NCBI GenBank assembly: GCA_003599295.1
Contig: QZJK01000007.1
Coordinates: 2,228 to 66,227 of the forward strand
From: Candidatus Parcubacteria bacterium
GTDB lineage: Bacteria; Patescibacteriota; Minisyncoccia; Phycocordibacterales; UBA2100
DNA: 64,000 nt
Reading direction: 5' to 3'
Shown here piece by piece: positions 39,273-56,554 of this stretch. The notes below the pieces were generated by a model, which saw only the letters and a program-made list of their open reading frames with translations, searched no databases and was not told where the DNA came from. The position numbers and the translations under genes were made by a program. Each line of letters begins with the position of its first letter. The first letter of the stretch is position 1.

Positions 39273-40064
39273 ATGGGACAAAAACTCGGTCAGCATTTTT
39301 TGAAGGGGGCGTGGGCGGCGCGCGCGCTCGTACGCGCCGCCGGTATTTCGAGCAGCGACACCGTGCTTGAAGTCGGTCCCGGAAAAGGCGCTCTCACGAA
39401 AGAACTTCTTGCAACAGGCGCACGCGTCATCGCGCTCGAGAAAGACGCGCCTCTTGCGAAAGTACTCGAAGAAAAATTCTCCGCGGAGATTCAAGCCGGA
39501 ACTTTGACCGTAGTCTTAGGGGATGTGCGAGACGCGCTGCCCGAACACCTTGGCCTCGAAAATGGACAGTACATCGTTGCGGCGAACATTCCGTACTACA
39601 TAACCGGAGAGATACTGCGGCAGTTCCTCACGGCACAAGCACAGCCGAAACGAATGGCGCTTCTTGTGCAGAAAGAAGTCGCGCAGAGGATAGTTTCAAA
39701 AAGGGAAAGTATCCTCTCGCTTTCGGTGAAGGCGTACGGGGTGCCAAAAATTGCGGCAAAAGTCCCTCGCGGGAATTTCTCCCCGCCACCTTCCGTGGAT
39801 TCTGCGATCATCGTTATCAACGATGTCTCCCGTAACTTTTTCGATACCATTTCGGAGAAGACTTTCTTTGCAATTGTGCGCGCCGGATTTTCCTCGAAGC
39901 GAAAACTGTTATCCGGAAATCTCGCTACTCACGGGCACGCGAAAGATACTGTTACTTCTGCCTTCGCCGCGTGCGATATACCGGAAAAAGCGCGGGCCGA
40001 GGACGTCCCGTTAGAGCAGTGGAAATGCCTGATTGAGAAGCTTGCCGCTCCGGAAAGCGCTTGA
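39273..40064 (+). CDS. rsmA: 16S rRNA (adenine1518/1519-N6) dimethyltransferase
   Basis: MGQKLGQHFL...VLEVGPGKGALT...ANIPY motifs. Confidence 0.85.
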   Translation: MGQKLGQHFLKGAWAARALVRAAGISSSDTVLEVGPGKGALTKELLATGARVIALEKDAPLAKVLEEKFSAEIQAGTLTVVLGDVRDALPEHLGLENGQYIVAANIPYYITGEILRQFLTAQAQPKRMALLVQKEVAQRIVSKRESILSLSVKAYGVPKIAAKVPRGNFSPPPSVDSAIIVINDVSRNFFDTISEKTFFAIVRAGFSSKRKLLSGNLATHGHAKDTVTSAFAACDIPEKARAEDVPLEQWKCLIEKLAAPESA

Positions 40065-40067
40065 AAG

Positions 40068-40403
40068 TCACTGACTTGAGCCGTGCATCGTTATCGCTAT
40101 GCCCGTATAGATAGTGAGCGGTTGGATCTTGTAAATGCAATAGTACGGAGCGCCAGCAAGGCCGAGGAGCCACTGTCCTGCATGGCGCGGCGGCCCGAAG
40201 CTATAGGTCTTGGTCGCCCTTGTCCATATGTACTCTCCGCCCCGAGGCGGACCGAGACTTGAATATATCGTCGAGTTGTAATAGCAGGGAAGAACGATGC
40301 GCGCTTGTCCGCCGAAGGGGAACGCGTACGCAGCGAGCGGGAACAGCGCGCATAACAATCCGACAACTATCGCGAGGACAGGGAATCGCATCGTCATGCC
40401 CAC
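40068..40403 (-). CDS. hypothetical small secreted protein
   Basis: Signal peptide; 111 aa. Confidence 0.35.
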   Translation of the reverse strand: MGMTMRFPVLAIVVGLLCALFPLAAYAFPFGGQARIVLPCYYNSTIYSSLGPPRGGEYIWTRATKTYSFGPPRHAGQWLLGLAGAPYYCIYKIQPLTIYTGIAITMHGSSQ

Positions 40404-40441
40404 ATTGTATCATCGCATGTGCTGTTCACTGACAATTTACC

Positions 40442-41359
40442 TTGTACACTGTTCGTATGGATTGGCTTCGCCTGCACCCGTACACGCTCATCGCCGTCGC
40501 CGTTTCGATACTTGTGCTCGCAGGCGCGTATGTGATCCAGCAGCGTCTCGGTGTGGAACCGGATCCGAACCGGACGGTCGCTTGGGGCGGATTCAACGGG
40601 CTCCTATATCCGGTGGATACGAGCGGGAGAGCAAATACTGCTGCTGAACAAACACTGCCTGACCTGTATCGCGATGTGCAAAGCGGACCGCCGTTCTGGT
40701 ATTCACCGCCCGCTATGGGGGACGCGGGGACGGAAGGGGATGCCAGCACCTTCGATATCGAGGCCTTCATCGCGATGCTTTCCGAAGACTCACCGAACAC
40801 GGGCGGTGATACTGGTTCGGTCGGAGCCGAAACATTCTTCGATGCGTACTCCTTCATTCCGCGGGGGCTTATAGCAACATCTGCGCCCACACAAGTCTTT
40901 ACCGAATCGCAGCAAGCGCTTCACACCTACGGCAATGAGGCCGGTTCTTACATTCAGGTGTTTGAGGATAGGAATCGCGACATGACCCGCGTACTCAAAG
41001 ACCAATTCGAAGATCCCGAGGACGCCCTCAAAAGAAATGCTTTGATAGGGCTTGCGGGAAGTCTCGCGGGCGTCGGGGAGTCGCTTGAAAACATACAAGA
41101 AGTGCCGACAGAGGCTCGGAGCGCAAATACGAAACTCGCTGGAAGCTACCGCGATATGGGAGCCAAACTTGCGCTCGTTCCAAATGCAGGAACGGAAGAA
41201 GAGCTCATCAGCGCGATGCTCACCTATAACGCCGCAGTCGAGGGGTATGTGAAAAATTATGTTGCGCTCGTGACCCTCTTCTCGCTCGCCGAGGTAACAT
41301 TCCGAGACGACGAGCCGGGGAGCGTCTTCATGTTCAGCGGAGGAAGTGGAGGATTTTAG
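40442..41359 (+). CDS. hypothetical membrane-anchored protein (T4SS-like cluster)
   Basis: An N-terminal TM helix and a helical periplasmic domain. Confidence 0.4.
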   Translation: MYTVRMDWLRLHPYTLIAVAVSILVLAGAYVIQQRLGVEPDPNRTVAWGGFNGLLYPVDTSGRANTAAEQTLPDLYRDVQSGPPFWYSPPAMGDAGTEGDASTFDIEAFIAMLSEDSPNTGGDTGSVGAETFFDAYSFIPRGLIATSAPTQVFTESQQALHTYGNEAGSYIQVFEDRNRDMTRVLKDQFEDPEDALKRNALIGLAGSLAGVGESLENIQEVPTEARSANTKLAGSYRDMGAKLALVPNAGTEEELISAMLTYNAAVEGYVKNYVALVTLFSLAEVTFRDDEPGSVFMFSGGSGGF

Positions 41360-41424
41360 ATACCCGAAGGAAGTAGATAGCCGGAAGTTTTTGAGTATTC
41401 CCCTGAACGTCTTGCGGGCAGGGC

Positions 41425-42291
41425 TTGGAAGCGTCATCGTACGCTATACTTTCCTATGTGAGAAACGAATCCTGGCATATCGGGAGTTCTCCCTCTATAA
41501 CACTCGCCGCCGGGTTTGCAGTGCTTGCACTCATAGCCGTTGCGGTATGGCAATTTGCGGAGCAATCGCGGGGCGGAAACATCACCAGTAATCCGGAGGA
41601 CGGGAGGGTCAGCCTTGCCGCACCCGAACGCGCGCCGAAGAGCTATTTTAATTGGCAGCAGGCGCCGGACTCGCTCTTAACCGATGCCTCCTCTGACACA
41701 TCCGATCCGGACGGTCTTTCATATATAGAAGACAATGTATTGGGAGCCCTGGTCGGTTCTTACGTCGCGTTGAATGATGCTGGTACCTACACCTCGAGCG
41801 CGGGACAGGAGGTCGCTGAATTCATCGCCTCGGACCTGCGCGCGAATGTCTCGTATGAGATATATTCTCCCGAAGATTTCCAGATAGACGCTGATGATTC
41901 TCTCGGACGAATGCTTTCATACCGGAACGATCTGCGCATTGCACTTGAACCTCTGCTCCAAAACACTACATACGAACTTGAGGTGTTCGCGTACTATGTC
42001 GACACGAATGACGAGGCATATCTTACTGAACTCGCTCGCATGGCCGGAAATTACCGCAGTGCCACCGACAATGCGCTCAAAGTTGTCGTCCCCGCAAATG
42101 CCGTCGCGTACCACGTCGGCATACTGAACGCATTGTCGGAATTCGAGGTGATACTGGCGAGACTGACCGAAAACGCCGATGATCCGTATGCTGCTGCAGC
42201 GCTCCTGCGCACGTTCAACAGCGCGGAAATGAACATGCTCTCGTCATTTAACGCACTCGCGGGCTATTTCCGTGAGAACATCCAATCATGA
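41425..42291 (+). CDS. hypothetical membrane-anchored protein (T4SS-like cluster)
   Basis: A TM helix near the N-terminus. It overlaps the next gene by 4 nt. Confidence 0.4.
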   Translation: MEASSYAILSYVRNESWHIGSSPSITLAAGFAVLALIAVAVWQFAEQSRGGNITSNPEDGRVSLAAPERAPKSYFNWQQAPDSLLTDASSDTSDPDGLSYIEDNVLGALVGSYVALNDAGTYTSSAGQEVAEFIASDLRANVSYEIYSPEDFQIDADDSLGRMLSYRNDLRIALEPLLQNTTYELEVFAYYVDTNDEAYLTELARMAGNYRSATDNALKVVVPANAVAYHVGILNALSEFEVILARLTENADDPYAAAALLRTFNSAEMNMLSSFNALAGYFRENIQS

Positions 42292-43916
42292 ATACTCGAA
42301 CCCTGATTCTCCACGTGCTCATACTCGCAATGCTTCTTATCGGCCTTGCAGGTGTCGCAACACCCGCGTACGGGCAAACGTGCGTGAACGGCAATCTCAT
42401 TGATGACCAAACCGGCGAAGTGATAGGGGTGTGCGATCCGTTCCAATTCCAGCGCGCGGGCATATTCGGCTGCAATCAAACCGGCTCGTACTCAATGAAT
42501 GTCGGCGCGCTTTCAGCTGTTGGCGGCGTCTATGTGCCGGTCAACGACGCGGCGGTGACCCTGAATACCGGATATCTCGTTTATAAGGAGTGCGTGCTTG
42601 ATGGCATCAGCAAACGCATGGGCGAGAGCGCTTCGACCGGACTTGTGAACAAAGGCGTGACCGATGTTGTCACCGGAAGAAACGGCGGTCCGCTTTGGCC
42701 CGTGGATCTTGCGGCTGACGTGAAGGAGCGAAGTAATCAATCTCGCTTGCATTCTCTTGAGAGTGGCTTCTTCTCTGACGTTCACCCCGCTCTTCGGAAC
42801 GATGTCATCCGCGCAACTACGTTGGATTACCAAGCGAGAACGCAAGACCCAACCCGTATGCTTACATGTCCTTACTCAGGAGATATTAGGGCAGTCTGGG
42901 AAAACAGGTCCGGTGACATCCTAAACGGGCTTCTTGCTCTTTCGAACCCTGCATGCAACCCTTTGGGTGCTACGATTCTCGCGCAATATCAAGCTGATAC
43001 AAAAGATGCCGCCGCGGTTGATGAAATGGCTTTCCGACTCACTACTGCCCAAGGTTTTTACGGCATCGAAGAATTCAATCCAGAAACTGGCAGATACGAA
43101 ACACGTACGCCGGGATCCGTTGTCTCTGGTAATCTTCAACAACTCCTCCAATCCGGTTTTAGACAACTTGAGAACGCTACTGAAATCGACCAAATGGTCG
43201 GGGCGCTATTTTCCGGTCTTTCTACGCAGGCCATTTCCGACAGCCGGGGTCTTATCGGCCTCTTACAGCCATCTCTTGGGCAACCTTCGTACTTGGACCA
43301 AATGGCACGAGAGGCATCGCAAGGTTTGCGCGATTCTGCCATCAATGCTGCACTTCAGATCCTTTCTGCCGCGCGACAAGTTGAAACGACGTACTTTAAC
43401 GCCATGAACGCGATAGCAAGCAACTTAACGCAAACAATAAATCAGCTTCGTTCGGCAGAGACCAGTTGCTGGGCGCTCGTCGTGCCAGCCGCACAGGCAT
43501 ACGCGAATCAGAACGGATTCCAAATAACCGCGGCAACTACCACGACAGCCTCACAACAAATAATAGATTCGCAGATTTCCCCCTTGGCGACAACGACTGT
43601 GTCTAACATAGCGCGAAGTCAGCAGGCGCTTGAGTTGATAAACCGACTCATCGCTGGAATCACTAATACCTCTTCTATCGAATCTCAGCGCCTCGCACTT
43701 CAGCAGCTGGACTCACTTGTTGCACAAGGACTGCTTCATAACCAGTACGACGCGCAGCAGGCAACGCAACGGCGTGAAGATGTGCAAACCGCGATGGCAA
43801 CACTTGTGGAGGATACCATTGTTGCGTGGGCGGATTCTCCGGACACGAACGTTGGCTGGTGCAACGTCAACAATCCGGAAATTGGCATGATTTGGGCAGA
43901 GCGGTGGAGAAGATAG
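42288..43916 (+). CDS. hypothetical large secreted protein (T4SS-like cluster)
   Basis: A signal peptide; 542 aa rich in Gln, Ala and Thr. Confidence 0.45.
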   Translation: MNTRTLILHVLILAMLLIGLAGVATPAYGQTCVNGNLIDDQTGEVIGVCDPFQFQRAGIFGCNQTGSYSMNVGALSAVGGVYVPVNDAAVTLNTGYLVYKECVLDGISKRMGESASTGLVNKGVTDVVTGRNGGPLWPVDLAADVKERSNQSRLHSLESGFFSDVHPALRNDVIRATTLDYQARTQDPTRMLTCPYSGDIRAVWENRSGDILNGLLALSNPACNPLGATILAQYQADTKDAAAVDEMAFRLTTAQGFYGIEEFNPETGRYETRTPGSVVSGNLQQLLQSGFRQLENATEIDQMVGALFSGLSTQAISDSRGLIGLLQPSLGQPSYLDQMAREASQGLRDSAINAALQILSAARQVETTYFNAMNAIASNLTQTINQLRSAETSCWALVVPAAQAYANQNGFQITAATTTTASQQIIDSQISPLATTTVSNIARSQQALELINRLIAGITNTSSIESQRLALQQLDSLVAQGLLHNQYDAQQATQRREDVQTAMATLVEDTIVAWADSPDTNVGWCNVNNPEIGMIWAERWRR

Positions 43917-43939
43917 TTTGAAAGGAGATTTACTACCGT

Positions 43940-46093
43940 ATGGGTTTCCTTTTAAGATTTCCGGGGGTTACGAGCGCCATTGGAGCGCTTGCAAGTTGGC
44001 TGGGTCTCGGTGCCGCAGCAATCGGAGCAGCGTATTTGTTTTCGAGCTACCTCATAGCGGCGATAACCGCGCTACTTTTGGAGATAGCTGTTCGTATACT
44101 AGTCATAGCGAGCACGATATTTAACTTCCTAGTCGAGCGAATTGTTATCGCTTTTGGACAAACTTTGAGGGAGTTGCAAATAAGTGGCGGCATAGAGACT
44201 GTGTGGGAGGTTTTTAGAGACCTTTCAAATATCGTAATAATCGGCATGTTCGTCTTTATTGCGATATCTTTGATCCTCGGCATTAAAGGATACGGGGAGC
44301 GTAAGATGATAGCGAGGGTGCTCGTCATTGCTGTTCTTATGAACTTTAGCCTGCTTTTCACGAGAATTATCATTGATGCCTCGAACTTCACCGCGTATCA
44401 ATTTTATACGGCGGCAGCACTGTCGAACGCTGGCGGAAATCCCGAGCTCCTTGAACAAGAGCGCGCCAACGGCATCGCCGGGAGATTTCTACAAATAATG
44501 GGGGTCGGCGGCTTCCTGGCAAACGCTGACGTGGCGTATGACATCGCCGAAAATCAAGGTGCAACTGTTGCGGCAACATATGGTTTAGTCGCCATCTTCC
44601 TAGTTGTCGCAGTAATTGCGACTCTGTTGTATGCGTCGTTCCTCATTGTAGCGCGTGGTGTGCTTTTAATATTTCTAATGATAGTTTCTCCATTAGCTTT
44701 TGCCAGTTATCTAATGCCTACCTACGAAAAAAGCGGCTGGAAAAGGTGGTGGGAAACATTGCTGAAGAGTGCTATTTTCTTTCCGCTCCTTACCATCTTT
44801 CTCTGGGCGTCACTCGTGTTATTAAGCAACGCAACGGGAGGCACCATAACGATCGCGGAATTTCTTGCAAACCCCACTACGCCTAATGCATGGCAGCCTA
44901 TTATCATTCTACTGTTTTCCGTTGCACTCTTATTCTTGTCGATACGGTTTGCGAGCAATTTTTCCGGTTCTATCGCCGGATGGAGTGGTGCAGCTGCGGC
45001 AACGTTGGCGCCATTTACGCTTGGTGCTCGGTTCGGCTTGGCGCCGGTTTTACGAACATGGCGCGGTAGAGCAAATCAGAGGCAGGCCCTGGGAATCGGT
45101 GAGGAGATCGAGAAGGAAAAAATGGAGGCGGCCAAGGCTCGCGCAGCTGGTAAGACATACGACATGACAAATATGTCGAAACTTATTAGAAAGCAGGAGA
45201 GAAAAGAGGGGTGGGCGAAGAGCGATTACAATGTATTCCAAACAAAGCCGGCTCAAATGTTTACAAAGGGAGTCGGTGTTACAGGACTTCTGTCAGGTGC
45301 GAGAGAGAAACCGCTCGGAGGGTTCGCTGCAGGAGCAAAGGCACGCTCCGAAGCAGCAGCAAAGGCAGCGTCGGAAAAGGTCGTCATCACTGAACGTGCC
45401 GCCGCAGAGAAACTTCGCGAAGAAAAGAAGAGTGACAGGAACTACAAGCTACAGCGTGATGCAATAGAGGAACAACGCAAGAATAGTTCTGAGCTTTTGA
45501 AGGCAACCCGAGAAGCTGCTCAACAATTGAGTGAAAAACATCAGGTTGCCAAAGAAGAAGCCGGCCGAGTGGAGAGCGAGGCGAGGGCAGCAAAGGTGCA
45601 GATTGAAGAGCAATATCAGGGCGGAGCGGGCTCAATAAGCAAGGCAGACCGAGACCGTCTTATTAGGGAACAGGATGACCGTATCGAGGGCGCTAAAAAA
45701 CAAGTCCAGACATCTGAAAGTCAGATTACCGAAATTGAGAGTAGAACGAAAGATCTAGAGAAAACCTTTAATAAAGCAGTGGGTGAATTACGAGAGTTTG
45801 ATAAGAATGTAGAAACGGAAATTAGTCAGAGCGCGAGAAAAATTGCTGAACAGAGCGTCAAAAACGCCCAAGAGGTAGGGGCTCGGCTCACAAGCAATAG
45901 GTTTACTGATTATCTTCCACGAGGGGTCAGGGAAAGCTTGGATGGCAGAACTGTGGCTAAAATGGCCAGGAGTAGTACAAAGAAAAAAGCTGGGTTAGGA
46001 AGACTCAAACAACGCATCCAAGCTGAACGTGAGATACTGGATTCCGCTGGCGAAGGGAGTGCCGGCAATGGAGCATCTGAAGAGAAGAAATAA
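43940..46093 (+). CDS. VirB6/TrbL-like polytopic membrane protein with long C-terminal coiled-coil extension
   Basis: At least six TM helices in the first roughly 350 aa, followed by a roughly 370-aa K/E/A/R-rich helical region. Confidence 0.5.
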   Translation: MGFLLRFPGVTSAIGALASWLGLGAAAIGAAYLFSSYLIAAITALLLEIAVRILVIASTIFNFLVERIVIAFGQTLRELQISGGIETVWEVFRDLSNIVIIGMFVFIAISLILGIKGYGERKMIARVLVIAVLMNFSLLFTRIIIDASNFTAYQFYTAAALSNAGGNPELLEQERANGIAGRFLQIMGVGGFLANADVAYDIAENQGATVAATYGLVAIFLVVAVIATLLYASFLIVARGVLLIFLMIVSPLAFASYLMPTYEKSGWKRWWETLLKSAIFFPLLTIFLWASLVLLSNATGGTITIAEFLANPTTPNAWQPIIILLFSVALLFLSIRFASNFSGSIAGWSGAAAATLAPFTLGARFGLAPVLRTWRGRANQRQALGIGEEIEKEKMEAAKARAAGKTYDMTNMSKLIRKQERKEGWAKSDYNVFQTKPAQMFTKGVGVTGLLSGAREKPLGGFAAGAKARSEAAAKAASEKVVITERAAAEKLREEKKSDRNYKLQRDAIEEQRKNSSELLKATREAAQQLSEKHQVAKEEAGRVESEARAAKVQIEEQYQGGAGSISKADRDRLIREQDDRIEGAKKQVQTSESQITEIESRTKDLEKTFNKAVGELREFDKNVETEISQSARKIAEQSVKNAQEVGARLTSNRFTDYLPRGVRESLDGRTVAKMARSSTKKKAGLGRLKQRIQAEREILDSAGEGSAGNGASEEKK

Positions 46094-46098
46094 CAATT

Positions 46099-46683
46099 AT
46101 GGACCCCGAAGAAAAGGAACTTGACGCAAAAATGAAGGAGCGTTTCGCGCAACTGCCGAAAGTAGTGCAGGATGCCATCACATCTGCCGACGTTGAAAAA
46201 AGATTACGTGCTCTCGCGGACACGCATAAATTGCATCTCGACCAATGGGAGACGCTCGAGAACGAGGTAATGCTCTCGCTTCTCGGATTTTCTCCTGTCG
46301 AGGAGCTCAAGGAAAATATACGGGTGGAAGTCGGCGTGCCGGAAAATACAGCGGAGCAACTCGCGAGTGATATCTCAAAATTGGTATTTGAACCTGTTCG
46401 ACAAGAACTCGAACGCGGACTTGCGCATCCGGAAGCAAAGAAGGAGGACGTAAGCAATGTCGAGGCGGCGCGTCGAGAGGTGCTCGAGAAAGCTCCGATT
46501 CCCAATGAAACCGCGGTTCCGAAACCGACCGAACCGATACCGGTGGTTGGAATACCTTCTTCGGCGGTACCTCCGGAGAAAAAAGCGGAACGCGGACCAG
46601 CCTCCGGCGCATACATACCCGGCGAACCCTCTTCTGCGAGAAAAGTCGTGGAAGACGACCCCTACCGCGAGCCGCCGGCGTGA
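46099..46683 (+). CDS. hypothetical protein (T4SS-like cluster)
   Basis: 194 aa, acidic, with a Pro-rich C-terminus. Confidence 0.35.
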   Translation: MDPEEKELDAKMKERFAQLPKVVQDAITSADVEKRLRALADTHKLHLDQWETLENEVMLSLLGFSPVEELKENIRVEVGVPENTAEQLASDISKLVFEPVRQELERGLAHPEAKKEDVSNVEAARREVLEKAPIPNETAVPKPTEPIPVVGIPSSAVPPEKKAERGPASGAYIPGEPSSARKVVEDDPYREPPA

Positions 46684-46725
46684 ACAACCGAGAATTCTTC
46701 AGCTTTGCGCTGATATAATGAGCGC

Positions 46726-47232
46726 ATGCAATTTCAGGTCCCTCAATTCATAGAGGTGGAGGATAAGATATTCGGACCCCTGACCTTCAAGCAGTTCGTG
46801 TACATTGCTGGGGGAGCGGGCGCGGCCTACCTCTTGTGGCGCGTATTGCCTCTGTTCCTTGCGGCCCCGCTCATTCTCGCCGTTGCAGGGTTCGCCGCGA
46901 GTCTGGCGTTCCTGCAATTCAACGGTCGTCCGTTCATCCTCGCAATAGAGAACAGTTTCTTTTATTTTCTAAAGACAAAGCTTTACCTCTGGAATAACGA
47001 GGAGAAAACCAAGAAAGTGGAGGCTCGCCGCTCCACTCCGAACGCCGCAACGCCATCGCAGGTGTATGTTCCGAAGCTTTCCGACAGCAAGCTGCACGAA
47101 CTCGCGTGGAGCCTCGACATTAAAGAACGCATCGCCGGAGGGGTCGCCTCAGGCGAAGAGCGTAGTGAGATTACTACTCCCGCTCCCGGCATCGTCGCAC
47201 CCGTGCGCACTGCGCGCGAAGCGCGCATATGA
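46726..47232 (+). CDS. PrgI/VirB3-like small membrane protein
   Basis: MQFQVPQFIEVEDKIFGPLTFKQF followed by two TM helices. It sits directly upstream of VirB4, as in Gram-positive T4SSs. Confidence 0.5.
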   Translation: MQFQVPQFIEVEDKIFGPLTFKQFVYIAGGAGAAYLLWRVLPLFLAAPLILAVAGFAASLAFLQFNGRPFILAIENSFFYFLKTKLYLWNNEEKTKKVEARRSTPNAATPSQVYVPKLSDSKLHELAWSLDIKERIAGGVASGEERSEITTPAPGIVAPVRTAREARI

Positions 47233-47255
47233 TGAAATCATCTAACTGAATCGCC

Positions 47256-47939
47256 ATGCCTCCAAAACTCCAAAATATCCGAGCAAGCAAGAAGTCCACA
47301 CAGGAATTCGTCCCCATTTCCGAGGTGCGCGACGGCGTCGTCGTTCTGAAAGACGGCGGTCTTCGCGCTATTCTTTTGGCGTCCTCGCTCAACTTCGCCC
47401 TCAAATCAGAAGATGAGCAGACCGCGTTCATCGTGCAATTCCAGAACTTCCTCAACTCCCTCGATTTCTCTGTGCAGATATTCATCCAGTCGCGCATGCT
47501 CGATATACGACCGTACGTCGCGACCCTCGAAACAGCATATAAAGGACAGCTCGACGATCTCATGCGCATTCAGATACGCGAATATATCGAATTCGTCAAA
47601 AGTTTCACGGAGGCGGCGAATATCATGACGAAGAATTTCTTCGTTGCGGTCCCCTATTCTCCCGGCGCCGTGCAGATATCGAAAGGGGGTCGTTCTTCTT
47701 TTCTTCCTTGGAACAAGAACAAGGGAGGGGGCGAAGAGCTCAACAAGACATTCGAGGAGCAGGTGACCCAGCTCGAGCAGCGTGTTGCGATCGTGCAGCA
47801 GGGATTGATACGAACAGGCGTACGCACGGTGCAATTGGGGACGGAAGAGGCTATCGAGCTTCTCTATAAGATGTTCAATCCCGGTGAAGAGGGAAAGCCG
47901 ATGACGTTGAACCAAGAAGTCGCAAACGCGAAGCAATAA
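47256..47939 (+). CDS. VirB4 N-terminal-domain-like protein (separate ORF)
   Basis: VPISEVRDGVVVLKDGGLRAIL...NFALKSEDEQTAFIVQFQNFLNSLDFSVQIFIQS resembles the N-terminal domain of conjugative VirB4/TraE. It ends 1 nt before the VirB4 ORF in a different frame. Confidence 0.5.
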   Translation: MPPKLQNIRASKKSTQEFVPISEVRDGVVVLKDGGLRAILLASSLNFALKSEDEQTAFIVQFQNFLNSLDFSVQIFIQSRMLDIRPYVATLETAYKGQLDDLMRIQIREYIEFVKSFTEAANIMTKNFFVAVPYSPGAVQISKGGRSSFLPWNKNKGGGEELNKTFEEQVTQLEQRVAIVQQGLIRTGVRTVQLGTEEAIELLYKMFNPGEEGKPMTLNQEVANAKQ

Positions 47940-47940
47940 T

Positions 47941-49866
47941 ATGGCACTCAAAGACCTTCTCTCATTCGGAAAAAAAGCGGCTCCTGAAGCGCGGGTGCTT
48001 CCAGTCTTGCCGGAAGAAATCTATGAAGCCGGTGTTTTGGACCTCCAGGACGTCATCGCCCCCCACGCCCTTCGCATTAACTCCCGTGAACTGGATTTGG
48101 GAGAAAAGATCGCTCGCACGTTCTTCGTGATTTCCTACCCGCGCTTCCTCACGACGGGATGGTTCGCACCAATCATCAACATGGACAAGGTCATTGATAT
48201 TTCCATCTTCGTGCACCCGATGGATACAAATGAAATGCTCCGAAAGTTCCAAAAGAAGGTCGCCGAGGTGCAGAGCCAGATCGCGACGCGGGAGGAGAAG
48301 GGCATGGTGCGAGACCCTGTTCTTGATACAGCATACTCCGACCTCGAAAAGCTGCGCGATTCACTTCAGCAGGCCCAAGAGCGCATCTTCGAAGTCGGCC
48401 TCTATTTGACGCTGTACGGAAATACCCGCGAAGAGATAGACAAAGTGGAGAGTGAGGTGCGCTCCATCTTGGAATCGCGTCTTGTGTATATTCGGCCCGC
48501 CCTCTTTCAGCAGGAAAGCGGCTTCAGGAGCGTGCTCCCCTTGGCGACCGATGAGCTCGACGTGCACACAAAGCTCAATTCCGCGCCGCTTTCCTCCATC
48601 TTCCCGTTCATCTCGTTCGACCTCACGAGCGACCGAGGCATCCTCTACGGCATAAACAGGCACAACTCCTCGCTCATTCTCTTCGACCGCTTTTCGCTCG
48701 AGAACTACAACTCAGTGACGTTCGCAAAATCGGGTGCGGGGAAATCGTACATGACGAAACTCGAAATTCTCCGTTCGCTCATGTTCGACACGGAAGTCAT
48801 CGTCATAGACCCGGAACGTGAATATGAATACCTTGCGGAAACAGTCGGGGGGCGCTACTTCAACATTTCACTATCGTCCGAGCACCACATCAATCCGTTC
48901 GACCTTCCAATCCCACGGGAAGACGAGAACCCGGCAGACGTGCTCCGGAACAACATCATCACGCTGGTCGGCCTCTTCCGCATCATGCTCGGCGGTCTCA
49001 CACCGGAAGAGGACGCCATCATCGACAAAGCCATAACGGAAACCTACGCCCTCAAGGACATCACGCCGGACGCGAACTTCGCAGCGGTCGAGCCGCCGCT
49101 CCTTTCGGACTTCGAGTTGGTGCTCTCTGGCATGGAGGGTTCGGATTCCCTCGTTGCGCGTCTCTCAAAGTATACAAAGGGGACATGGGCGGGATTCATG
49201 AACCGTCCGACGAATGTCGACATGAACAAACGACTTGTCGTATTCTCCGTGCGCGACATGGAAGATGACTTGAAACCCGTTGCCATGTACACCATTACTC
49301 ATCACATTTGGAATACGATACGGAAAGAACTGCGAAAGCGGCTCCTCGTCATAGACGAGGCGTGGTGGATGATGCGCGCCGAGGATACGGCTTCGTTCCT
49401 CTTCGGCATCGCGAAGCGCGGACGCAAATACTACCTTGGCATCTCTACCATTACGCAGGACGTCTCCGACTTCTTGAACTCTCCCTATGGCATTCCGATG
49501 ATAACGAACTCATCTATCCAAATACTGTTGCGGCAATCGCCGACATCCGTCGACCTCGTGCAACAAACATTCAAGCTCTCCGATGAGGAGAAATATCTCC
49601 TGCTCGAATCGGATGTGGGGGAAGGCATTTTCTTCGCAGGATTAAAACACGTGGCCGTGAAGGTGATAGCCTCATACACGGAAGACCAGATAATCACTTC
49701 CGACCCGTCGCAGATACTTGCGATACGAAAAGCGAAACGAGAACTTGAGGACGCGAACGCCACGGTCACAGAAACGGCATCTCCGCGGTACGTAAAGGAC
49801 CCGGGCCCCGCGCCGGCAACGCCGGCCGGGCAAAATGCTCCGACCCAAAATCCGGTCGCCGTATGA
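47941..49866 (+). CDS. VirB4/TraE-family type IV secretion ATPase
   Basis: An N-terminal IAPHALRINSRELDLGEKIARTFFVISYPRF segment, Walker A FAKSGAGKSY and Walker B LLVIDEAWWM. Confidence 0.8.
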   Translation: MALKDLLSFGKKAAPEARVLPVLPEEIYEAGVLDLQDVIAPHALRINSRELDLGEKIARTFFVISYPRFLTTGWFAPIINMDKVIDISIFVHPMDTNEMLRKFQKKVAEVQSQIATREEKGMVRDPVLDTAYSDLEKLRDSLQQAQERIFEVGLYLTLYGNTREEIDKVESEVRSILESRLVYIRPALFQQESGFRSVLPLATDELDVHTKLNSAPLSSIFPFISFDLTSDRGILYGINRHNSSLILFDRFSLENYNSVTFAKSGAGKSYMTKLEILRSLMFDTEVIVIDPEREYEYLAETVGGRYFNISLSSEHHINPFDLPIPREDENPADVLRNNIITLVGLFRIMLGGLTPEEDAIIDKAITETYALKDITPDANFAAVEPPLLSDFELVLSGMEGSDSLVARLSKYTKGTWAGFMNRPTNVDMNKRLVVFSVRDMEDDLKPVAMYTITHHIWNTIRKELRKRLLVIDEAWWMMRAEDTASFLFGIAKRGRKYYLGISTITQDVSDFLNSPYGIPMITNSSIQILLRQSPTSVDLVQQTFKLSDEEKYLLLESDVGEGIFFAGLKHVAVKVIASYTEDQIITSDPSQILAIRKAKRELEDANATVTETASPRYVKDPGPAPATPAGQNAPTQNPVAV

Positions 49867-50930
49867 GGACGCCTTTCGTTCGGGCACTTGTACTATCGAT
49901 AGTGTTCGCGGCGATGCTCGGAGCTGTCCCGGCTGGAATGCCTACGCATGCGCAATTTGGCATTCCTGTTGGCATTCCTGGCACGAGTCTTTCCCTAAGC
50001 TCATCCCCTGAACACCCTGCCCCGAACTCATCCGTGCGCCTCTCTCTGCAGAGTGTGTTTCTCGACCTCGCCGATAGCAACATCACCTGGTACGCGAACG
50101 ATGCCGTTATCGCGGAGGGGATCGGGCTCAGGGAAACGAGCCTGATTACAGGATCTCTTGGTTCTGAAACCCGTATACGAGTCGAGGTCGCAGGACAGGA
50201 CGGAACTGCTACCGCAACAGGGACACTTCGGCCGACTGAAGTAGATCTTCTCTGGGAAGCAGACTCGTACGTACCTCCGTTCTATAACGGCCGCGCACTT
50301 CCGTCGCCGGGAAGCAACGTCCGTCTCTTCGCGATACCACGTTTTCAACGTGCGGGAGCTAGTTCTACGGTGTCCCCTGACGAGCTCATATACACATGGA
50401 AGAAAAACGGCCGCGTCGTACAAGCCGTGAGCGGGCGCGGGAAACATACCGTGGTCATGGAAAGCCCTGTCCTTTTCGGGACCGATACGGTCTCGGTCGA
50501 GGCTCGTACTTCAGATGGAGTATTACGCGGCTCGACATCCGTACGCATCGCCTCAGTTGAGCCCGTCCTCTCCTTATACGAGAATCACCCTGTGTTCGGC
50601 ATTTTGTACCACCGCGCACTTCAAGACGGGTCCGTGGTCTCTGAAACCGAAGCGGTGTTTACCGCGGTCCCATACTTCGTTCCCGCCCGAACTCCCGACA
50701 ACAGCGCCCTTGTATACGAATGGAGCATCAACGGAACACCTATCGCGAACGATCCGAGGCACCCGAGTTCTATTACTATCAATGCCGAGGGGTCGAGCGG
50801 GCTCGCGCAGATCGCACTTGCCCTTACGCATGCGACGAACTTCTTCTTGAGTGCCTCAAGCGCTTGGAGTGTCACGCTTTCCGGAACTGGTCAGGGGAGC
50901 ATCCCCGACCTGTTCGGAGTGGAAGAATGA
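49863..50930 (+). CDS. hypothetical secreted protein with internal repeats
   Basis: A signal peptide. It overlaps the VirB4 stop by 4 nt. Confidence 0.45.
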   Translation: MRTPFVRALVLSIVFAAMLGAVPAGMPTHAQFGIPVGIPGTSLSLSSSPEHPAPNSSVRLSLQSVFLDLADSNITWYANDAVIAEGIGLRETSLITGSLGSETRIRVEVAGQDGTATATGTLRPTEVDLLWEADSYVPPFYNGRALPSPGSNVRLFAIPRFQRAGASSTVSPDELIYTWKKNGRVVQAVSGRGKHTVVMESPVLFGTDTVSVEARTSDGVLRGSTSVRIASVEPVLSLYENHPVFGILYHRALQDGSVVSETEAVFTAVPYFVPARTPDNSALVYEWSINGTPIANDPRHPSSITINAEGSSGLAQIALALTHATNFFLSASSAWSVTLSGTGQGSIPDLFGVEE

Positions 50931-50934
50931 GCAT

Positions 50935-52218
50935 ATGCCCGCGACCTCTCGAACATCCAAAATCCTGCGCTATACGCTCATTGGCGTTATCGTGCTTTCG
51001 CTTGCAGGACTCCTCTCTTGGTACTTTTTCCTGCGGAATCAGGGGGACGTGCTTCGCACACAGGATGAAGGGAGGGGGGCCGGTATCGCGCCCCCGTCGT
51101 TCGGAGGCATTATCGGAAGCACGTATGACAATATCGTGGAAAGCATCTCTTCTCTTGCCAATGGAAATAGCGCTGAAGCACCGGCCCAGCCTCCTCGTTT
51201 ATGGCAGATAACGAAAACGCCCGTTGCCGGCATGGGGTTCGTCTCGCCGGAGTTCGGCACAGCTTCTTCAACGGCACGCAACGTGCTGTACACGGTGCGG
51301 TTCGTGGAACGCGGAACCGGTTATGTCTTCGACGCGAATCCGGCAAGCGGGGCGTTGACGCGGCTTACGAACACTCTCGTGCCGCGAGTGTATGAAGCGT
51401 TCGTCGGCATAAACGGCACTCTTATCTTGAGAGGTCTCGATGAAGATACGAGTTTTGTTATGACGAGCGCCGGACTCGCGACGAGTACCCCAACTTCGAT
51501 AAAAGAACCCGCTGCGCTTTCGCTCATAACGCTTCCGCAAGACATCCGAGAACTCGTTCTTAGTCCTTCTGGAGAAGAAGTTCTATATCTTATTGAACAA
51601 TCTCCCGGTTTCTCAGTAGTGCGTTCTGCGTGGAATGGTGGAGATTCCGAACGAGTTATGAAAGTCGGCGTTTCGGGCTGGCAAATCCGTTGGCTTTCGG
51701 ATGACCGCATCATACTGACGCAACATACTGCAGACGGTACTTCCGCTCACGTGTATGCGCTTGAGAGCGGGAGGCTCGTACCGCTCATTCCGGGGGGAGG
51801 CGCGCTCACGCTTCTCCCACGCGCCGGTTCACCTGCGATACTATACGGAAGCGTTTCCGGAAATGCCGCGCTTGCCGCAAGAATAGACGAAAAGACGAGT
51901 GCCGTTCCTATACCCGTATGGACAACGACAGACAAGTGCGTGTGGGCACCCGGTACGGAGCTTGTTGCATACTGTGCCGTTCCTCGGGTATTGCCGAGTG
52001 CGGAAAACGTTCGCGCGAAACTTCGCGGGGAAATCTATTCTTCCGATACCTGGTGGAGAATTGACGTCCGCGCGGGGCGAGCGGAATCAATGTATGACCC
52101 AGGAGGCAACGCCGATATTGATGTTGAAAATCCGATGATAGACGCGGGCGGCAATTACATTGCATTTACCAGTGCGCGCGACAAAACGCTTTGGGTGTTG
52201 CGCATCGGAGAGGAATGA
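50935..52218 (+). CDS. membrane-anchored beta-propeller (TolB/PD40-like) protein
   Basis: The start was chosen at the internal ATG at 50935. It has an N-terminal TM helix and repeated beta-strand blades (WxxDGxxI..). Confidence 0.45.
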   Translation: MPATSRTSKILRYTLIGVIVLSLAGLLSWYFFLRNQGDVLRTQDEGRGAGIAPPSFGGIIGSTYDNIVESISSLANGNSAEAPAQPPRLWQITKTPVAGMGFVSPEFGTASSTARNVLYTVRFVERGTGYVFDANPASGALTRLTNTLVPRVYEAFVGINGTLILRGLDEDTSFVMTSAGLATSTPTSIKEPAALSLITLPQDIRELVLSPSGEEVLYLIEQSPGFSVVRSAWNGGDSERVMKVGVSGWQIRWLSDDRIILTQHTADGTSAHVYALESGRLVPLIPGGGALTLLPRAGSPAILYGSVSGNAALAARIDEKTSAVPIPVWTTTDKCVWAPGTELVAYCAVPRVLPSAENVRAKLRGEIYSSDTWWRIDVRAGRAESMYDPGGNADIDVENPMIDAGGNYIAFTSARDKTLWVLRIGEE

Positions 52219-52219
52219 T

Positions 52220-53131
52220 ATGGCGACGTTTTTCAACAGAACATTGTTCCTCGCGAGCATCATGGCTCTCATGTGGATGAGCGGCATTTCGATAGCTGAC
52301 GCGCAAGCGTGCGGAGACCAACCGAACGGATGTCCTCAAGGACAGATCTGCGTTCATCAAAGCTTCGGTGTTGAGTTTTGCAGCGCGGATCCCGCATTCC
52401 AAGGATGTACCGGTGCCGACCCCTCGAACGGCACGCGCATATGTACCTGTATCTCATCCGGAAGCATCTATACGTGGAGCTGCACGAATAGGAATATTAC
52501 CCCCGACCAGTGTCCCCAACCGCAGCCCAATGTCGGGCGCGCATGCAGCTGCGTACTTTCAGGAGGGAATTACGTGTGGGATTGCGGTTCCGGCGCTAGC
52601 TCCATTCCTGCTGGGCAGCAATCAGCTCCGCCGGCATTCGTGCCTCTTGCCAATGTCACCGGCTCCAAACTCGGTAACTTATACGGCGGTGCGAGCGGCG
52701 ACCTGGCAACGTTCATCGAACGCCTTTTCGGGTTCGCACTATCGCTTGGCGCGATACTCGCGATACTTCGGATAGCGTGGGGAGGGTATCTCTATATGAC
52801 TACCGACTTGTGGAGTTCGAAGGAGCACGCACGAGAAGTCATACGAGAAACGGTTCTTGGCTTGCTGCTATTACTTGCCGTGTGGGTTATCCTTTCTCAA
52901 ATCAATCCGGACATTCTGAGGCTGAACGTATTGGAGACCCTTAAGGCAAATCCCATTCCGGCTTCTTCTTCCGTGCGGAGCAATGCTTTGAGCGGTTCCG
53001 TGCCGATTATTCAAAATCCATCCGGCGGGGCGAGTCTTATTATCCCCCCGGGGACAAATCTAGCCCCTAACTGCATAGTAAATGGCCAGCCCGGTCTTTT
53101 GGGCGAGAGCGGAACATGCTTCCCGCTCTAG
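52220..53131 (+). CDS. Cys-rich secreted protein with two C-terminal TM helices (VirB2/TrbC-like pilin candidate)
   Basis: A signal peptide, 10 or more Cys in the N-terminal domain, then the hydrophobic helices FGFALSLGAILAILRIAWGG and VLGLLLLLAVWVILSQI. Confidence 0.4.
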   Translation: MATFFNRTLFLASIMALMWMSGISIADAQACGDQPNGCPQGQICVHQSFGVEFCSADPAFQGCTGADPSNGTRICTCISSGSIYTWSCTNRNITPDQCPQPQPNVGRACSCVLSGGNYVWDCGSGASSIPAGQQSAPPAFVPLANVTGSKLGNLYGGASGDLATFIERLFGFALSLGAILAILRIAWGGYLYMTTDLWSSKEHAREVIRETVLGLLLLLAVWVILSQINPDILRLNVLETLKANPIPASSSVRSNALSGSVPIIQNPSGGASLIIPPGTNLAPNCIVNGQPGLLGESGTCFPL

Positions 53132-53140: not shown

Positions 53141-53722
53141 TCACCCCGCGTACTTAATTACAACTCTACGATTCCGCCCTTCGCCCTGCGATTCGGTTTT
53201 CACATTCGGCGCATCGGAAAGCGTCGTGTGGATGATGAGACGTTCATAAGAACTCATAGGGGAGAGTTCGACGTCGTATTGGAATGAACGGGCGCGCTCT
53301 GCCATCATGAGCGCTTTGCTTTGCAAATCCTTTATCTGTTTCGAGCGATACTCGTTGACGTCCACCAGAAAGTGCGGTCCCGTACCAGCCTCACCATCTC
53401 CTGCGGATGCTTCTCCGGTTCCCGATGCCGAGCCCTCGCCCAAGCGTTTCTCAACGATCTTCTTTACGAGCATATCGAGCGCCTGCACGGTTTCGCCTCT
53501 CATGCCGATAAGCGCGCGGCCGTCGTCTACCTGGATGGAGAAAATGTTTTGTCCGGCGATCTCGCTTTGAGCCACTCCGGAGTACGCAGCGCCGAGCGCA
53601 TCGAGAAGTTCTTTGATGGCCGCTTCAATAACGGAGTTTGCGTGCATTCGCGCACTATACTCCGTGAGATGGGGCACGTCTATTTTGCGGAATATCGGGC
53701 TGCATTGTCGACGATGAGTCAA
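53141..53722 (-). CDS. jag: Jag/KhpB RNA-binding protein (KH + R3H)
   Basis: A C-terminal R3H domain (YERLIIHTTLSD...RRVVIK). It lies downstream of yidC as in the canonical origin-region operon. Confidence 0.8.
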   Translation of the reverse strand: MTHRRQCSPIFRKIDVPHLTEYSARMHANSVIEAAIKELLDALGAAYSGVAQSEIAGQNIFSIQVDDGRALIGMRGETVQALDMLVKKIVEKRLGEGSASGTGEASAGDGEAGTGPHFLVDVNEYRSKQIKDLQSKALMMAERARSFQYDVELSPMSSYERLIIHTTLSDAPNVKTESQGEGRNRRVVIKYAG

Positions 53723-53777: not shown

Positions 53778-54497
53778 CTAAAACCGCCTTCCCATCAAAT
53801 ACTCCTGTCCTATCATAAAAAGGTTGCTCGTCGCCCAATAGAGCGGTGCCGCGGCTACAACGTAGTAGGAGATGACCGCGACCATGACGGGAAGTATGTA
53901 GCGCACCTGGAGGTCAAAGCTGCGCGCCATATCAGCGGAGAACGACGCGCCCGCAGGTTGCGCGACTGGAGTGCGTTTACCGGTCGAAAGCCGCGTGTAG
54001 ACGAACTGGGTCACTCCCGCGAGCGCTGCCAAGAGTATGCTGTGGCCGTCCATCGCGATAATGCCCAAAAAGACCATCTCTATGGATTCCGGAACCGGCA
54101 CGAACGAATACAGCAAGGCCATGTTCACTTCCGGAAGTCCGCCGTGAGAGAACACCCAGTAGAGCCCGATCAGAATGGGGAGTTGCACGAGAAGGAGCGC
54201 GAAGCTTGCGAACGGCCGTACGCCGCGCTCTCGGTAGAGCGCAAGTATCGCGCGCCCCTGCTCCTCCCTTTTATCCTTGAACTTTTCCTTCAGCGCCTCG
54301 ACTTCCGGTGCGATCTTCTTCATCTGTATCTGCGTTTCGATCGCGCGCCGCGAGAGCGGGAACAAAATGAAGCGAACGACAATGGTAAGCGCGATGACCG
54401 CAAGACCGACATCGTGAGAGGGGATTAAGCTTACGAAAAACACGAGCCCGTTATAGAGGGGCTCGTATACCAACGTATTGAAGGCTGCTGAAATCAT
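53778..54497 (-). CDS. yidC: membrane protein insertase YidC (short Gram-positive/CPR type)
   Basis: 239 aa with five TM helices and the conserved region ...RRAIETQIQMKKIAPEVEALKEKFKD... Confidence 0.85.
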   Translation of the reverse strand: MISAAFNTLVYEPLYNGLVFFVSLIPSHDVGLAVIALTIVVRFILFPLSRRAIETQIQMKKIAPEVEALKEKFKDKREEQGRAILALYRERGVRPFASFALLLVQLPILIGLYWVFSHGGLPEVNMALLYSFVPVPESIEMVFLGIIAMDGHSILLAALAGVTQFVYTRLSTGKRTPVAQPAGASFSADMARSFDLQVRYILPVMVAVISYYVVAAAPLYWATSNLFMIGQEYLMGRRF

Positions 54498-54545
54498 TGG
54501 AGTAGTATCGCGTAGAGAAGGGCAAGTATCAAGCGGGGACGGGGA

Positions 54546-54887
54546 CTACTGACTCGCTTGAATTTTCCGAAGCAGCCCGTCGATATCATCATGAATCGCG
54601 GCGCGCGGAGCGTTTGCCGCCTCCCGCTTAGCATAAAAAACGAGTGTAAGCGATTTTTGTATGCCCGCAATGCGGGAACTGACCGCTTCGCGACACAATC
54701 GCTTGATGCGGTTGCGCTCCACTGCCTTTTTGGAGACCTTCGTAGATACCACGCACGCGAATTTAGGCGCGACGCCTCCTGAAAACGGAGAAGCCGCGAG
54801 TGAGAAACACGTGCCGTGAACACGCGACTGCCGTTTGCTACCCCGTATGCGGACGAAATCGCTCCGCGAAAGCCTATGCGTGGTCAT
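54546..54887 (-). CDS. rnpA: ribonuclease P protein component
   Basis: 113 aa, basic, with the RNR-like motif KKAVERNRIKR. Confidence 0.8.
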   Translation of the reverse strand: MTTHRLSRSDFVRIRGSKRQSRVHGTCFSLAASPFSGGVAPKFACVVSTKVSKKAVERNRIKRLCREAVSSRIAGIQKSLTLVFYAKREAANAPRAAIHDDIDGLLRKIQASQ

Positions 54888-55192: not shown

Positions 55193-56554
55193 ATGACTAC
55201 GACAACACTCAGCAACCGTGAACTTTGGCAAAATGCGCTTGTTCAGATAGAGCTAAGCACCTCGGAAACGAGCTTCCGGACGTGGTTCAGGAATACGGAC
55301 ATCGCATCGCGAAGCGGCGGGACAGTGCAGGTCGCTGTTCCGTCGAAAATCGTGAAAGAATGGCTGATGGAGAAGCACGGAAAGCTTATCTTAAAGACAT
55401 TGCGCTCTCTCGACAGCACGGTTCGGACCGTTGAATATGTCGTGCACCGCTCTCCTCCGAAAGAAGAGCGGAAGCCGGGTCGCGCACTCTCTTCTCCGCA
55501 ATCCGCCATCGACCTTTCGGCCCTGTACATCGATAAGCGCGATAATTTGAATCCTCGCTACACATTCGAAACATTCGTCGTCGGGCCGTTCAACCAGCTC
55601 GCACACGCCGCAGCAAAGGCGGTCATCGAGCGACCGGGATTGGCCTACAACCCGCTTTTCATCTACGGCGCAACGGGACATGGCAAAACACATCTCATCC
55701 AGGCAGTGGGGAACTACTTTAAGAAAACACACGCCAATAAAAAAGTGTTATACGTCACCTCCGAGCGTTTCGCGGTTGATTACATGAACGCGGTACGCGC
55801 CGGGCGTGCGAACAGTTTCAAAGATCAGTATAGAAGCCATGACGTTCTTATCATGGATGACGTGCAGTTCATCGCGAATACGGAAAAAACCCAAGAAGAG
55901 CTCTTCCACCTTTTCAATACTCTCCACGACAATAACAAGCAAATTGTTTTTTCTTCGGACAAGCATCCTGCGCTTTTGCCCGGGCTTGAAGAGCGACTCA
56001 AAGGGCGTTTTTCCGCCGGCATGATAGCGGAAATACCTGAGCCGGATGTCGAGTCGCGCATCGCCATCATCAAAGCGAAGCTCGAGAGCCATGGGTTCTC
56101 CATCCCTGAAGACGTCATTCTCTTCATCGCGGAGAATGTCCGCGGGAACATCCGCGAACTTGAGGGAATACTTAATATGATCGTCTGTAAATCCCAGTTA
56201 AAGGGGCGAGGGGTGTCCCTCGCGGATGTGCGGGTCCTCATTAAACACAATGTGCGCCCCGCCAGAGGCGTTTCTGTCGACGAGGTCGTGCGTAGGATCG
56301 CTCAATATTATGAGGTCGCGGAGAAAAGTATTTATGAAAAGACCCGCAAGAAGGAGGTGGTAAAGCCGCGGCAGATAATCATGTACATTCTCCGAGAAGA
56401 ATTCAGTGTTTCATACCCATCAATAGGCGAGAAGTTGGGCGGAAGAGACCATACGACAGTCATCCATTCCTGCGAGAAGATAAAGGAGGAAATAAAATCG
56501 AATACCGCGCTTGAGCAAGAGCTTGATCATATCCGCGCGCTTATACACGCATAG
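55193..56554 (+). CDS. dnaA: chromosomal replication initiator DnaA
   Basis: Walker A GATGHGKTHL, an AAA+ domain and a C-terminal DNA-binding domain IV. Confidence 0.9.
   Translation: MTTTTLSNRELWQNALVQIELSTSETSFRTWFRNTDIASRSGGTVQVAVPSKIVKEWLMEKHGKLILKTLRSLDSTVRTVEYVVHRSPPKEERKPGRALSSPQSAIDLSALYIDKRDNLNPRYTFETFVVGPFNQLAHAAAKAVIERPGLAYNPLFIYGATGHGKTHLIQAVGNYFKKTHANKKVLYVTSERFAVDYMNAVRAGRANSFKDQYRSHDVLIMDDVQFIANTEKTQEELFHLFNTLHDNNKQIVFSSDKHPALLPGLEERLKGRFSAGMIAEIPEPDVESRIAIIKAKLESHGFSIPEDVILFIAENVRGNIRELEGILNMIVCKSQLKGRGVSLADVRVLIKHNVRPARGVSVDEVVRRIAQYYEVAEKSIYEKTRKKEVVKPRQIIMYILREEFSVSYPSIGEKLGGRDHTTVIHSCEKIKEEIKSNTALEQELDHIRALIHA

Follow-up and report, generated by a model that had tools for sequence, protein, structure and literature searches.

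A predicted type IV secretion system of the Patescibacteria clade beside the replication origin of a Candidatus Parcubacteria bacterium

Type IV secretion systems (T4SSs) are thought to be central to the life of the ultrasmall, metabolically dependent Patescibacteria on their host cells, and in the single genetically tractable species, the T4SS is essential. Here, we describe a T4SS gene cluster at 40068-53131 of a 64,000-nucleotide stretch from a Candidatus Parcubacteria bacterium (contig QZJK01000007.1 of assembly GCA_003599295.1, positions 2,228 to 66,227). We will refer to this whole stretch as the window. We are confident that the cluster is a chromosomal T4SS of the Patescibacteria clade, in its Paceibacteria/Kaiserbacteria form, and that it lies beside the replication origin. 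The overall statement that this Patescibacteria-clade T4SS has a non-conjugative role in interactions with a host is, in our judgment, likely.

The locus and its described relatives

A survey of 3,035 Patescibacteria assemblies (Quinonero-Coronel et al. 2025; PMC12102498) found VirB4 in 2,417 of them, as a monophyletic group that is nested in MPF_FATA. TrsD was the most common partner, and VirB3/PrgI, VirB6, and VirB2-like pilins were also found near virB4. According to the survey, VirB8 is almost absent, there is no outer-membrane core, relaxases are present in only 103 of the 3,035 genomes, and VirD4-like genes are present in 2,918 of them, mostly far from virB4. The T4SS of Paceibacteria adjoins dnaA, dnaN, ksgA, rnpA, and rpmH, and that of the class ABY1 is linked to comF/recG/radA. 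In Saccharibacteria, transposon sequencing showed that epibiotic growth requires the T4SS (SEML1_0005-0019), pilins included (Wang et al. 2023; PMC10633639). This T4SS also adjoins dnaA, and it is described as being without a recognizable coupling protein or relaxase. A 2025 FEMS review (PMC12857230) reports that the essentiality of the T4SS is independent of ComEC, and speculates that material is exchanged with the host through the pilus. In a 2026 preprint on a cultivated member that takes up RNA from its host, tubes are described that penetrate the host and may be T4SS pili.

The window locus fits the survey's description. It encodes VirB4, an adjacent TrsD-like protein, PrgI/VirB3, a VirB2-like pilin, and a probable VirB6-like protein, which is the same set of components in the same phylum, and as in the survey, no relaxase, type IV coupling protein (T4CP), or VirB8-11 is near virB4. 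It also shares the location by dnaA, dnaN, and ksgA. We judged its membership in the clade by the nearest VirB4 neighbors, not by a tree: the best 80 of at least 554 relatives are all from Patescibacteria. There is no essential difference from the published systems, although the window's pilin has a Cys-rich insertion that is lineage-specific. The system has already been published, and conceptually there is nothing new at this locus, which is a clean and complete example of the Paceibacteria arrangement. The residual novelty is in its unannotated accessory proteins, which are candidates for envelope, tip, and adaptor parts that are otherwise missing; the seven accessory genes that we characterize below stand unannotated in the portions of the survey used here.

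The T4SS of Southlakia epibionticum ML1 (PMC10633639) has the same core order (VirB6-like, PrgI, TrsD-like, VirB4) and is near dnaA, dnaN, and recF. Its pilins are of PF18895, an exported Ig/PEGA-like protein is encoded downstream, and again no recognizable relaxase or coupling protein is described. The two also differ. In Southlakia, the pilin genes form an array of six, VirB4 is followed downstream by lysozyme-like proteins, and the accessory proteins are much larger. In the window, there is a single pilin gene, the cluster encodes no hydrolase, and the accessories are different ones (a propeller, a paralogous helical pair, and the proteins that we call g542 and g194).

The system is derived from the conjugation machinery of monoderm bacteria (MPF_FATA). 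Like the conjugative T4SSs of that type (pCF10 Prg/Pcf, pGO1 Trs, and CTn2 of the CD1110 type), it has a CD1110 VirB4, PrgI, and TrsD, and no outer-membrane core. Unlike them, it has no relaxase or T4CP at the locus, no VirB8-like protein (PrgL/TcpC), and no VirB1-like hydrolase of the PrgK type in the cluster; its VirB2-like pilin has no counterpart in Gram-positive systems; and it sits at a fixed chromosomal locus instead of on a mobile element. The closest plasmid VirB4s are from monoderm hosts (Firmicutes and Actinobacteria), belong to the CD1110 family, and are 30-37% identical to the window's VirB4. As for diderm MPF_T systems, we found no match in the cluster to their VirB7/VirB9/VirB10 outer-membrane core or to their VirB11 ATPase (Pfam and NCBIfam). 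Bordetella Ptl, Brucella VirB, Helicobacter ComB, and archaeal Ced are also alike in that they work without a coupling protein and/or a relaxase, in secretion or import rather than in conjugation. But the first three are of the diderm MPF_T type, built around a VirB7/9/10 core, and Ced comprises CedA/CedA1/CedA2 and CedB; none of these parts were found in the window.

More broadly, we ran a Pfam scan of 51 open reading frames (ORFs) in the window, namely the cluster and its flanks, including 30 further ORFs elsewhere in the window. Relaxases, VirD4/T4CP, VirB8, VirB9, VirB10, VirB11, and mobile-element integrases had no match among these 51 ORFs, and none of them had a T4SS-DNA_transf, TrwB, or FtsK-type match. 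A previous reading of this DNA from its letters alone (the sequence-only reading) had likewise recognized no relaxase, VirD4, VirB11, VirB9, or VirB10. It had argued for a reduced, non-conjugative apparatus in an organism with a reduced genome, which agrees with the conclusions of PMC12102498 and PMC10633639.

The genes of the cluster are as follows, with starts corrected against alignments of orthologues. The names of the accessory genes are ours.

40068-40403, minus strand: m111, small secreted protein, divergent from the block
40457-41359, plus strand: g305, single-pass membrane protein (the ATG at 40457 agrees with the orthologue alignment)
41425-42291, plus strand: g288, single-pass membrane protein with a helical domain, remote paralogue of g305
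42288-43916, plus strand: g542, exported helical protein with 8 Cys
43940-46093, plus strand: VirB6/TrbL-like polytopic protein with a coiled-coil tail (probable; sub-threshold)
46099-46683, plus strand: g194, soluble protein with no transmembrane segment and a C-terminal D-P-Y-R-E
46726-47232, plus strand: PrgI/VirB3 (PF12666)
47256-47939, plus strand: TrsD-like protein, a VirB4 N-terminal domain as a separate polypeptide
47941-49866, plus strand: VirB4 ATPase (NF045971; MPF_FATA type, CD1110 family)
49863-50930, plus strand: g355, exported, three tandem Ig-like domains; its start and the stop of VirB4 overlap (ATGA)
50935-52218, plus strand: g455, N-terminal membrane anchor and probable TolB-like beta-propeller (ATG at 50935)
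52220-53131, plus strand: VirB2-like pilin-domain protein (PF18895)

From the ORF listing and translations, the plus-strand block (40457-53131) has 11 tightly packed genes, flanked by ksgA on one side and by jag-yidC-dnaA-dnaN on the other. All 11 ORFs are intact, the spacers between them are at most 65 nt, and at two junctions the genes overlap by ATGA. The sequence-only reading had instead counted 13 genes in an uninterrupted plus-strand block. Two of its 13 were probably the plus-strand ORFs at 40083-40262 and 40297-40647, which we rejected in favor of the conserved minus-strand gene m111; the plus-strand ORFs in 40068-40403 are poorly conserved or not conserved.

Core components

VirB4 (641 amino acids) matches the NCBIfam model conju_CD1110 (NF045971) with 357.8 bits, above the curated cut-off of 325, across model positions 185-732. 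It also matches the TraG P-loop domain of Pfam (E = 1.6e-23), and its translation has an intact Walker A motif (GAGKS) and an intact Walker B motif (VIDEAW). The ATPase is therefore of the VirB4 family, as had been proposed, and the alternatives that had been named beforehand, that it might be FtsK or another AAA+ protein or that the membrane proteins might match unrelated transporters, fail. A weak and partial match to CedB (E = 7.9e-10) has 38 bits against a cut-off of 700.

The TrsD-like protein (227 amino acids) matches positions 93-231 of VirB4_plasma in NCBIfam (E = 1.5e-9), TrsD (E = 6.8e-6), and positions 2-115 of CD1110. Its stop codon (TAA at 47937-47939) is separated from the ATG of VirB4 (47941) by 1 nt, and the two genes are in different frames. 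Across the 80 loci that we compared (see below), the TrsD-like gene was matched in 78, and in 77 of these 78, we extracted a separate ORF of 209-227 amino acids. By these matches, the TrsD-like protein and the 641-amino-acid ATPase together reconstitute a full-length VirB4 that is split over two polypeptides; the sequence-only reading had already seen a separate ORF like the N-terminal domain of VirB4. PrgI/VirB3, a small membrane protein of 168 amino acids that had also been anticipated, has 39.7 bits against PF12666 (gathering threshold 27), and the gene is present in 77 of the 80 loci.

The product of 43940-46093 (717 amino acids) is likely VirB6/TrbL-like. In a scan for transmembrane segments, it has seven such segments within residues 1-340, and these are followed by a C-terminal tail of about 330 residues, which is a charged, Lys/Glu-rich coiled coil and is placed as cytoplasmic. 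The gene is found in 61 loci, in the same place upstream of PrgI-TrsD-VirB4. The polytopic architecture and the long coiled-coil tail were already part of the sequence-only reading; the family assignment that came with them stays below threshold. The window's protein has no match in Pfam. Among 46 orthologues, 6 matched TrbL (PF04610), with a best E of 5.4e-5, and no other family was matched. In the one orthologue whose match we inspected (from locus L049), the score was 23.5 bits over residues 130-307, which is below the gathering threshold of 25.9. A profile of the family, compared to the sequences in the PDB, gave coiled-coil noise only and did not match any solved VirB6. The GC content dips to 0.485 at 44001-46000 (versus about 0.55), with a strongly positive GC skew (0.151); this coincides with the Lys/Glu-rich tail.

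The pilin-domain protein (303 amino acids, Cys-rich) matches PF18895 at residues 161-226 with 28.2-28.4 bits (gathering threshold 26.6), so the VirB2-type pilin that had been proposed from its architecture is found by family as well. PF18895 was matched by 40 of 45 orthologues, and TrbC/VirB2 by 6 of 45. In the window's protein, the Cys-rich insertion follows the signal peptide and precedes the pilin domain, and there is also a C-terminal extension; the ORF with a TTG start (52160-53131) has 16 Cys. No part of the system varies more than the pilin gene: its orthologues range from 134 to 523 amino acids and from 0 to 28 Cys, and in single orthologues, a 3D, NlpC/P60, CHAP, or subtilase domain is fused to the protein.

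Accessory proteins

The sequence-only reading had placed exported or membrane-anchored hypothetical proteins on both sides of the core, one of them TolB-like, and our scan for transmembrane segments agrees, with a weak similarity to TolB. It had also stated that the accessory proteins have no recognizable domains. This is true at the sequence level, but at the level of folds, g355 has tandem Ig-like domains and g455 has a weak match to a beta-propeller. Predicted structures cover g542 and g355.

Upstream of the core, m111 has a signal peptide or one transmembrane-like segment, and the alignment shows an invariant FGG, two invariant Cys, and a C-terminal MMGSSQ. By tblastn, it is found in 22 related loci (45-67% identity), at the same site between ksgA and the cluster, and its start codon is about 55-65 bp from that of the block. 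It has no match in Pfam and belongs to no known family. m111 is an unproven candidate for membership in the T4SS.

The first two genes of the block, g305 and g288, appear to be tandem duplicates; both encode a single-pass membrane protein with a helical ectodomain. In g305, a variable linker connects the N-terminal transmembrane segment to a helical domain of about 140 residues at the C-terminus, and the alignment of g305 to the g288 family has an hhalign probability of 97.8% (E = 1.2e-12). g288 is found in 26 loci. Neither protein matches Pfam or NCBIfam, and g288 has no match among PDB sequences. We considered whether this pair could be VirB8 and rejected it: the ectodomains are helical, not NTF2-like, and they matched only designed coiled coils.

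g542 has 8 Cys, of which 5 are invariant, along with a strongly conserved N-terminal segment (residues ~58-104) and a long helical bundle that matches no known fold. One speculative role for it is that of a tip, of the VirB5 or translocator kind, which would touch the host envelope or break through it. g194, which is found in 50 loci, has a conserved N-terminal helical domain and a hypervariable Pro-rich linker, and it has no match in Pfam, NCBIfam, or the PDB. Its C-terminal D-P-Y-R-E motif is invariant across all 44 aligned orthologues, which suggests a docking peptide, that is, a short linear docking or signal motif. We found no mention of this motif in the portions of the literature used here.

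On the other side of VirB4, g355 is translationally coupled to VirB4 by the ATGA overlap and is present in 77 of the 80 loci. It has a signal peptide and three tandem immunoglobulin-like (Ig-like) beta-sandwich domains (AlphaFold2 model with pLDDT 90.6 and pTM 0.78). In Foldseek, the model is similar to Ig1-3 of NCAM (E = 4.7e-9) and to phage Hoc (E = 1.3e-7); a profile of g355 also finds Hoc in the PDB (E = 1.8e-4). g455 has an N-terminal transmembrane segment and two invariant Cys, and it is found in 66 loci. Its ectodomain is probably a TolB-like beta-propeller, to judge by a weak match of its profile to TolB in the PDB (E = 0.014) and by single orthologues that match DPPIV_N and PD40.

Inheritance, function, and the rest of the window

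Among the genomes of GTDB species, we found at least 554 relatives of VirB4. We compared the loci of the best 80 by VirB4 similarity, which are all in metagenome-assembled genomes of the Kaiserbacteria/Paceibacterota/Parcubacteria type (73-93% identity), and we searched them with all of the window's proteins using tblastn. (A protein from the window is 100% identical to the hypothetical protein C4556_01435 of "Candidatus Parcubacteria bacterium.") The common order is uvrD-ksgA-m111(-)-g305-g288-g542-VirB6-g194-VirB3-TrsD-VirB4-g355-g455-pilin-jag-yidC-dnaA-dnaN. Checking synteny in related genomes had been suggested at the outset, and the order is conserved in 75 species-level genomes: these are the loci with at least five of the genes, and 39 are fully colinear, while the other 36 differ only in that the pilin gene precedes g455. 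The arrangement with the pilin gene between g355 and g455 is that of the more distant genomes.

In these loci, the median identity is 78% for VirB4, 56% for DnaA, 51% for UvrD, 45% for YidC, and 41% for DnaN, although choosing the loci by VirB4 similarity somewhat inflates the apparent conservation of VirB4. The identity of VirB4 co-varies with that of its housekeeping neighbors (Spearman correlations of 0.47-0.78). Because the order is conserved, VirB4 is better conserved than DnaA, and it diverges along with housekeeping genes, these comparisons indicate that the locus is a vertically inherited and strongly selected machine, and neither a mobile element nor a relic. The GC content of the block resembles that of its flanks, and there is no compositional anomaly except for the Lys/Glu-rich tail of VirB6.

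How might this machine work? We suggest that VirB4 and TrsD would dock on a membrane platform of VirB3 and the extended VirB6. Using the energy of ATP, VirB4 would pull pilin from the membrane so that it could be polymerized into a tube or pilus that crosses the monoderm wall. The exported accessory proteins (g355 with its three Ig-like domains, the g455 propeller, the g305/g288 pair, and g542) would be lineage-specific envelope or tip parts that replace VirB8/9/10. The role of the machine would be the contact-dependent exchange of macromolecules with the host cell (the export of effectors and/or the import of host material), and not plasmid conjugation. This scheme is drawn from established T4SS biology; the locus itself provides an intact and conserved set of VirB4, TrsD, VirB3, and pilin, plus a probable VirB6. 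A further idea is that the seven accessory genes (m111, g305, g288, g542, g194, g355, and g455) encode lineage-specific parts of Paceibacteria that are in no described T4SS, and that together they form a new envelope-spanning module that imports host macromolecules, with g542 as the tip, for example, and g194 as an adaptor or substrate that docks via its C-terminal motif. This is possible, but we regard it as doubtful.

Several points weigh against our interpretation of the locus. Besides the way that the loci were chosen, the assignment of VirB6 is sub-threshold in Pfam. The essentiality of the T4SS was shown only in Southlakia, which belongs to a lineage other than that of the window. The roles suggested for the accessory proteins come only from generic predicted folds (Ig-like, propeller, and helical bundle). 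Neither a VirB8-like protein (NTF2-fold PrgL/TcpC) nor a VirB1-like hydrolase (PrgK/TrsG/CD419) was found in the cluster by Pfam or NCBIfam, so the envelope-spanning part of the scheme is a guess. Finally, a coupling protein or a relaxase could lie outside of the 64-kb window.

This last point matters for the idea that the locus is a functional conjugation or mobilization apparatus, with the genes for its coupling protein and relaxase in another part of the genome. Our view is limited to 64 kb, the VirD4-like genes in 2,918 of 3,035 genomes are mostly distant from virB4 (PMC12102498), and the window's VirB4 does fall in a conjugative family (CD1110). But relaxases are in only 103 of those genomes, and in Southlakia, the T4CP homologue is reported to be dispensable while the T4SS genes are essential. 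Also, the locus is fixed at the origin and diverges along with housekeeping genes, and there is no relaxase or mobile-element integrase nearby, as the single integrase-family ORF is XerC/D-like. We consider conjugation to be quite unlikely. A machine for DNA uptake (competence), like ComB of Helicobacter or archaeal Ced, would explain a T4SS that has a pilin but no relaxase or T4CP. The ATPase has its weak partial match to CedB, comM is within the window, and the T4SS of ABY1 is linked to comF/recG/radA (PMC12102498). However, that match, so far under its cut-off, reflects a generic likeness of VirB4-family proteins. Furthermore, the competence of Southlakia is ascribed to type IV pili and ComEC, and a comEC deletion is viable there while the T4SS is essential; the window has separate type IV pilus genes of its own. 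DNA uptake is therefore an unlikely role.

An adhesive pilus that serves for attachment only, and that translocates no substrate, would fit with the variable pilin (134-523 amino acids, with Cys-rich or enzymatic additions), as expected for the recognition of host surfaces, and with the lack of an identifiable substrate or coupling protein. Yet type IV pili already provide adhesion (PMC12857230) and their genes are in the window, and a channel protein such as the extended VirB6, along with a VirB4 that is strongly conserved, suits a translocon as well as pilus assembly, so we think that a purely adhesive role is very unlikely. The missing canonical components and the several "hypothetical" genes could also bring to mind an integrated conjugative element that is decaying and no longer has a function. 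We give this almost no credence: the 11 ORFs are intact and tightly coupled, the Walker motifs are intact, the order is kept in 75 species-level genomes with a VirB4 that is more conserved than DnaA, the composition is unremarkable outside of the VirB6 tail, and we did not see frequent frameshifts in the orthologues. Overall, we favor a vertically inherited T4SS that interacts with a host.

The neighbors of the block are uvrD/pcrA and ksgA upstream and jag, yidC, dnaA, and dnaN downstream, which places the cluster at the replication origin:

39273-40064: ksgA, assigned from its translation alone and without a Pfam scan; its position is kept in 52 loci
53141-53722, minus strand: jag/R3H gene, downstream of the block
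53778-54497: YidC (Pfam)
55193-56554: DnaA (Pfam)
56777-57871: DnaN (Pfam)

The ORF at 54494-54823 has no match in Pfam, and rnpA and rpmH were not confirmed beside the locus. Scans of the block for promoters and terminators gave results at chance level only, and Rfam and tRNA scans had no match within the cluster.

The remaining scanned ORFs of the window are housekeeping genes, type IV pilus genes, comM, and an XerC/D-type recombinase. The recombinase is a tyrosine recombinase at 23564-24478 (minus strand), and it is the sole integrase-family match in the scanned ORFs. The ComM-type Mg-chelatase-like ATPase is at 32763-34310 (plus strand). Both are among housekeeping genes, and neither adjoins the T4SS block. 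Apart from VirB4, the secretion ATPases of the window are limited to the PilB-like and PilT-like proteins of type IV pili. The type IV pilus group comprises:

4011-5813, minus strand: 600-amino-acid protein with a CarboxypepD_reg domain, grouped with the type IV pilus genes
5819-7036, minus strand: PilC/T2SSF
7105-8841, minus strand: PilB-like ATPase with a MshEN domain
63191-63982, minus strand: PilT-like ATPase, cut by the end of the window

Three large ORFs had no Pfam match (E up to 0.001): 30536-32275 (plus strand, 579 amino acids), 1962-3407 (minus strand, 481 amino acids), and 19175-20239 (plus strand, 354 amino acids). A secreted protein with LysM and M23 peptidase domains is encoded at 35973-37010 (minus strand), about 3 kb upstream of the block and outside of it; proteins of this type were counted as VirB1-like in PMC12102498. 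Near the origin, the GC content dips to 0.482 at 56001-58000 (versus about 0.55), which spans dnaN and the spacer between dnaA and dnaN and may include oriC.

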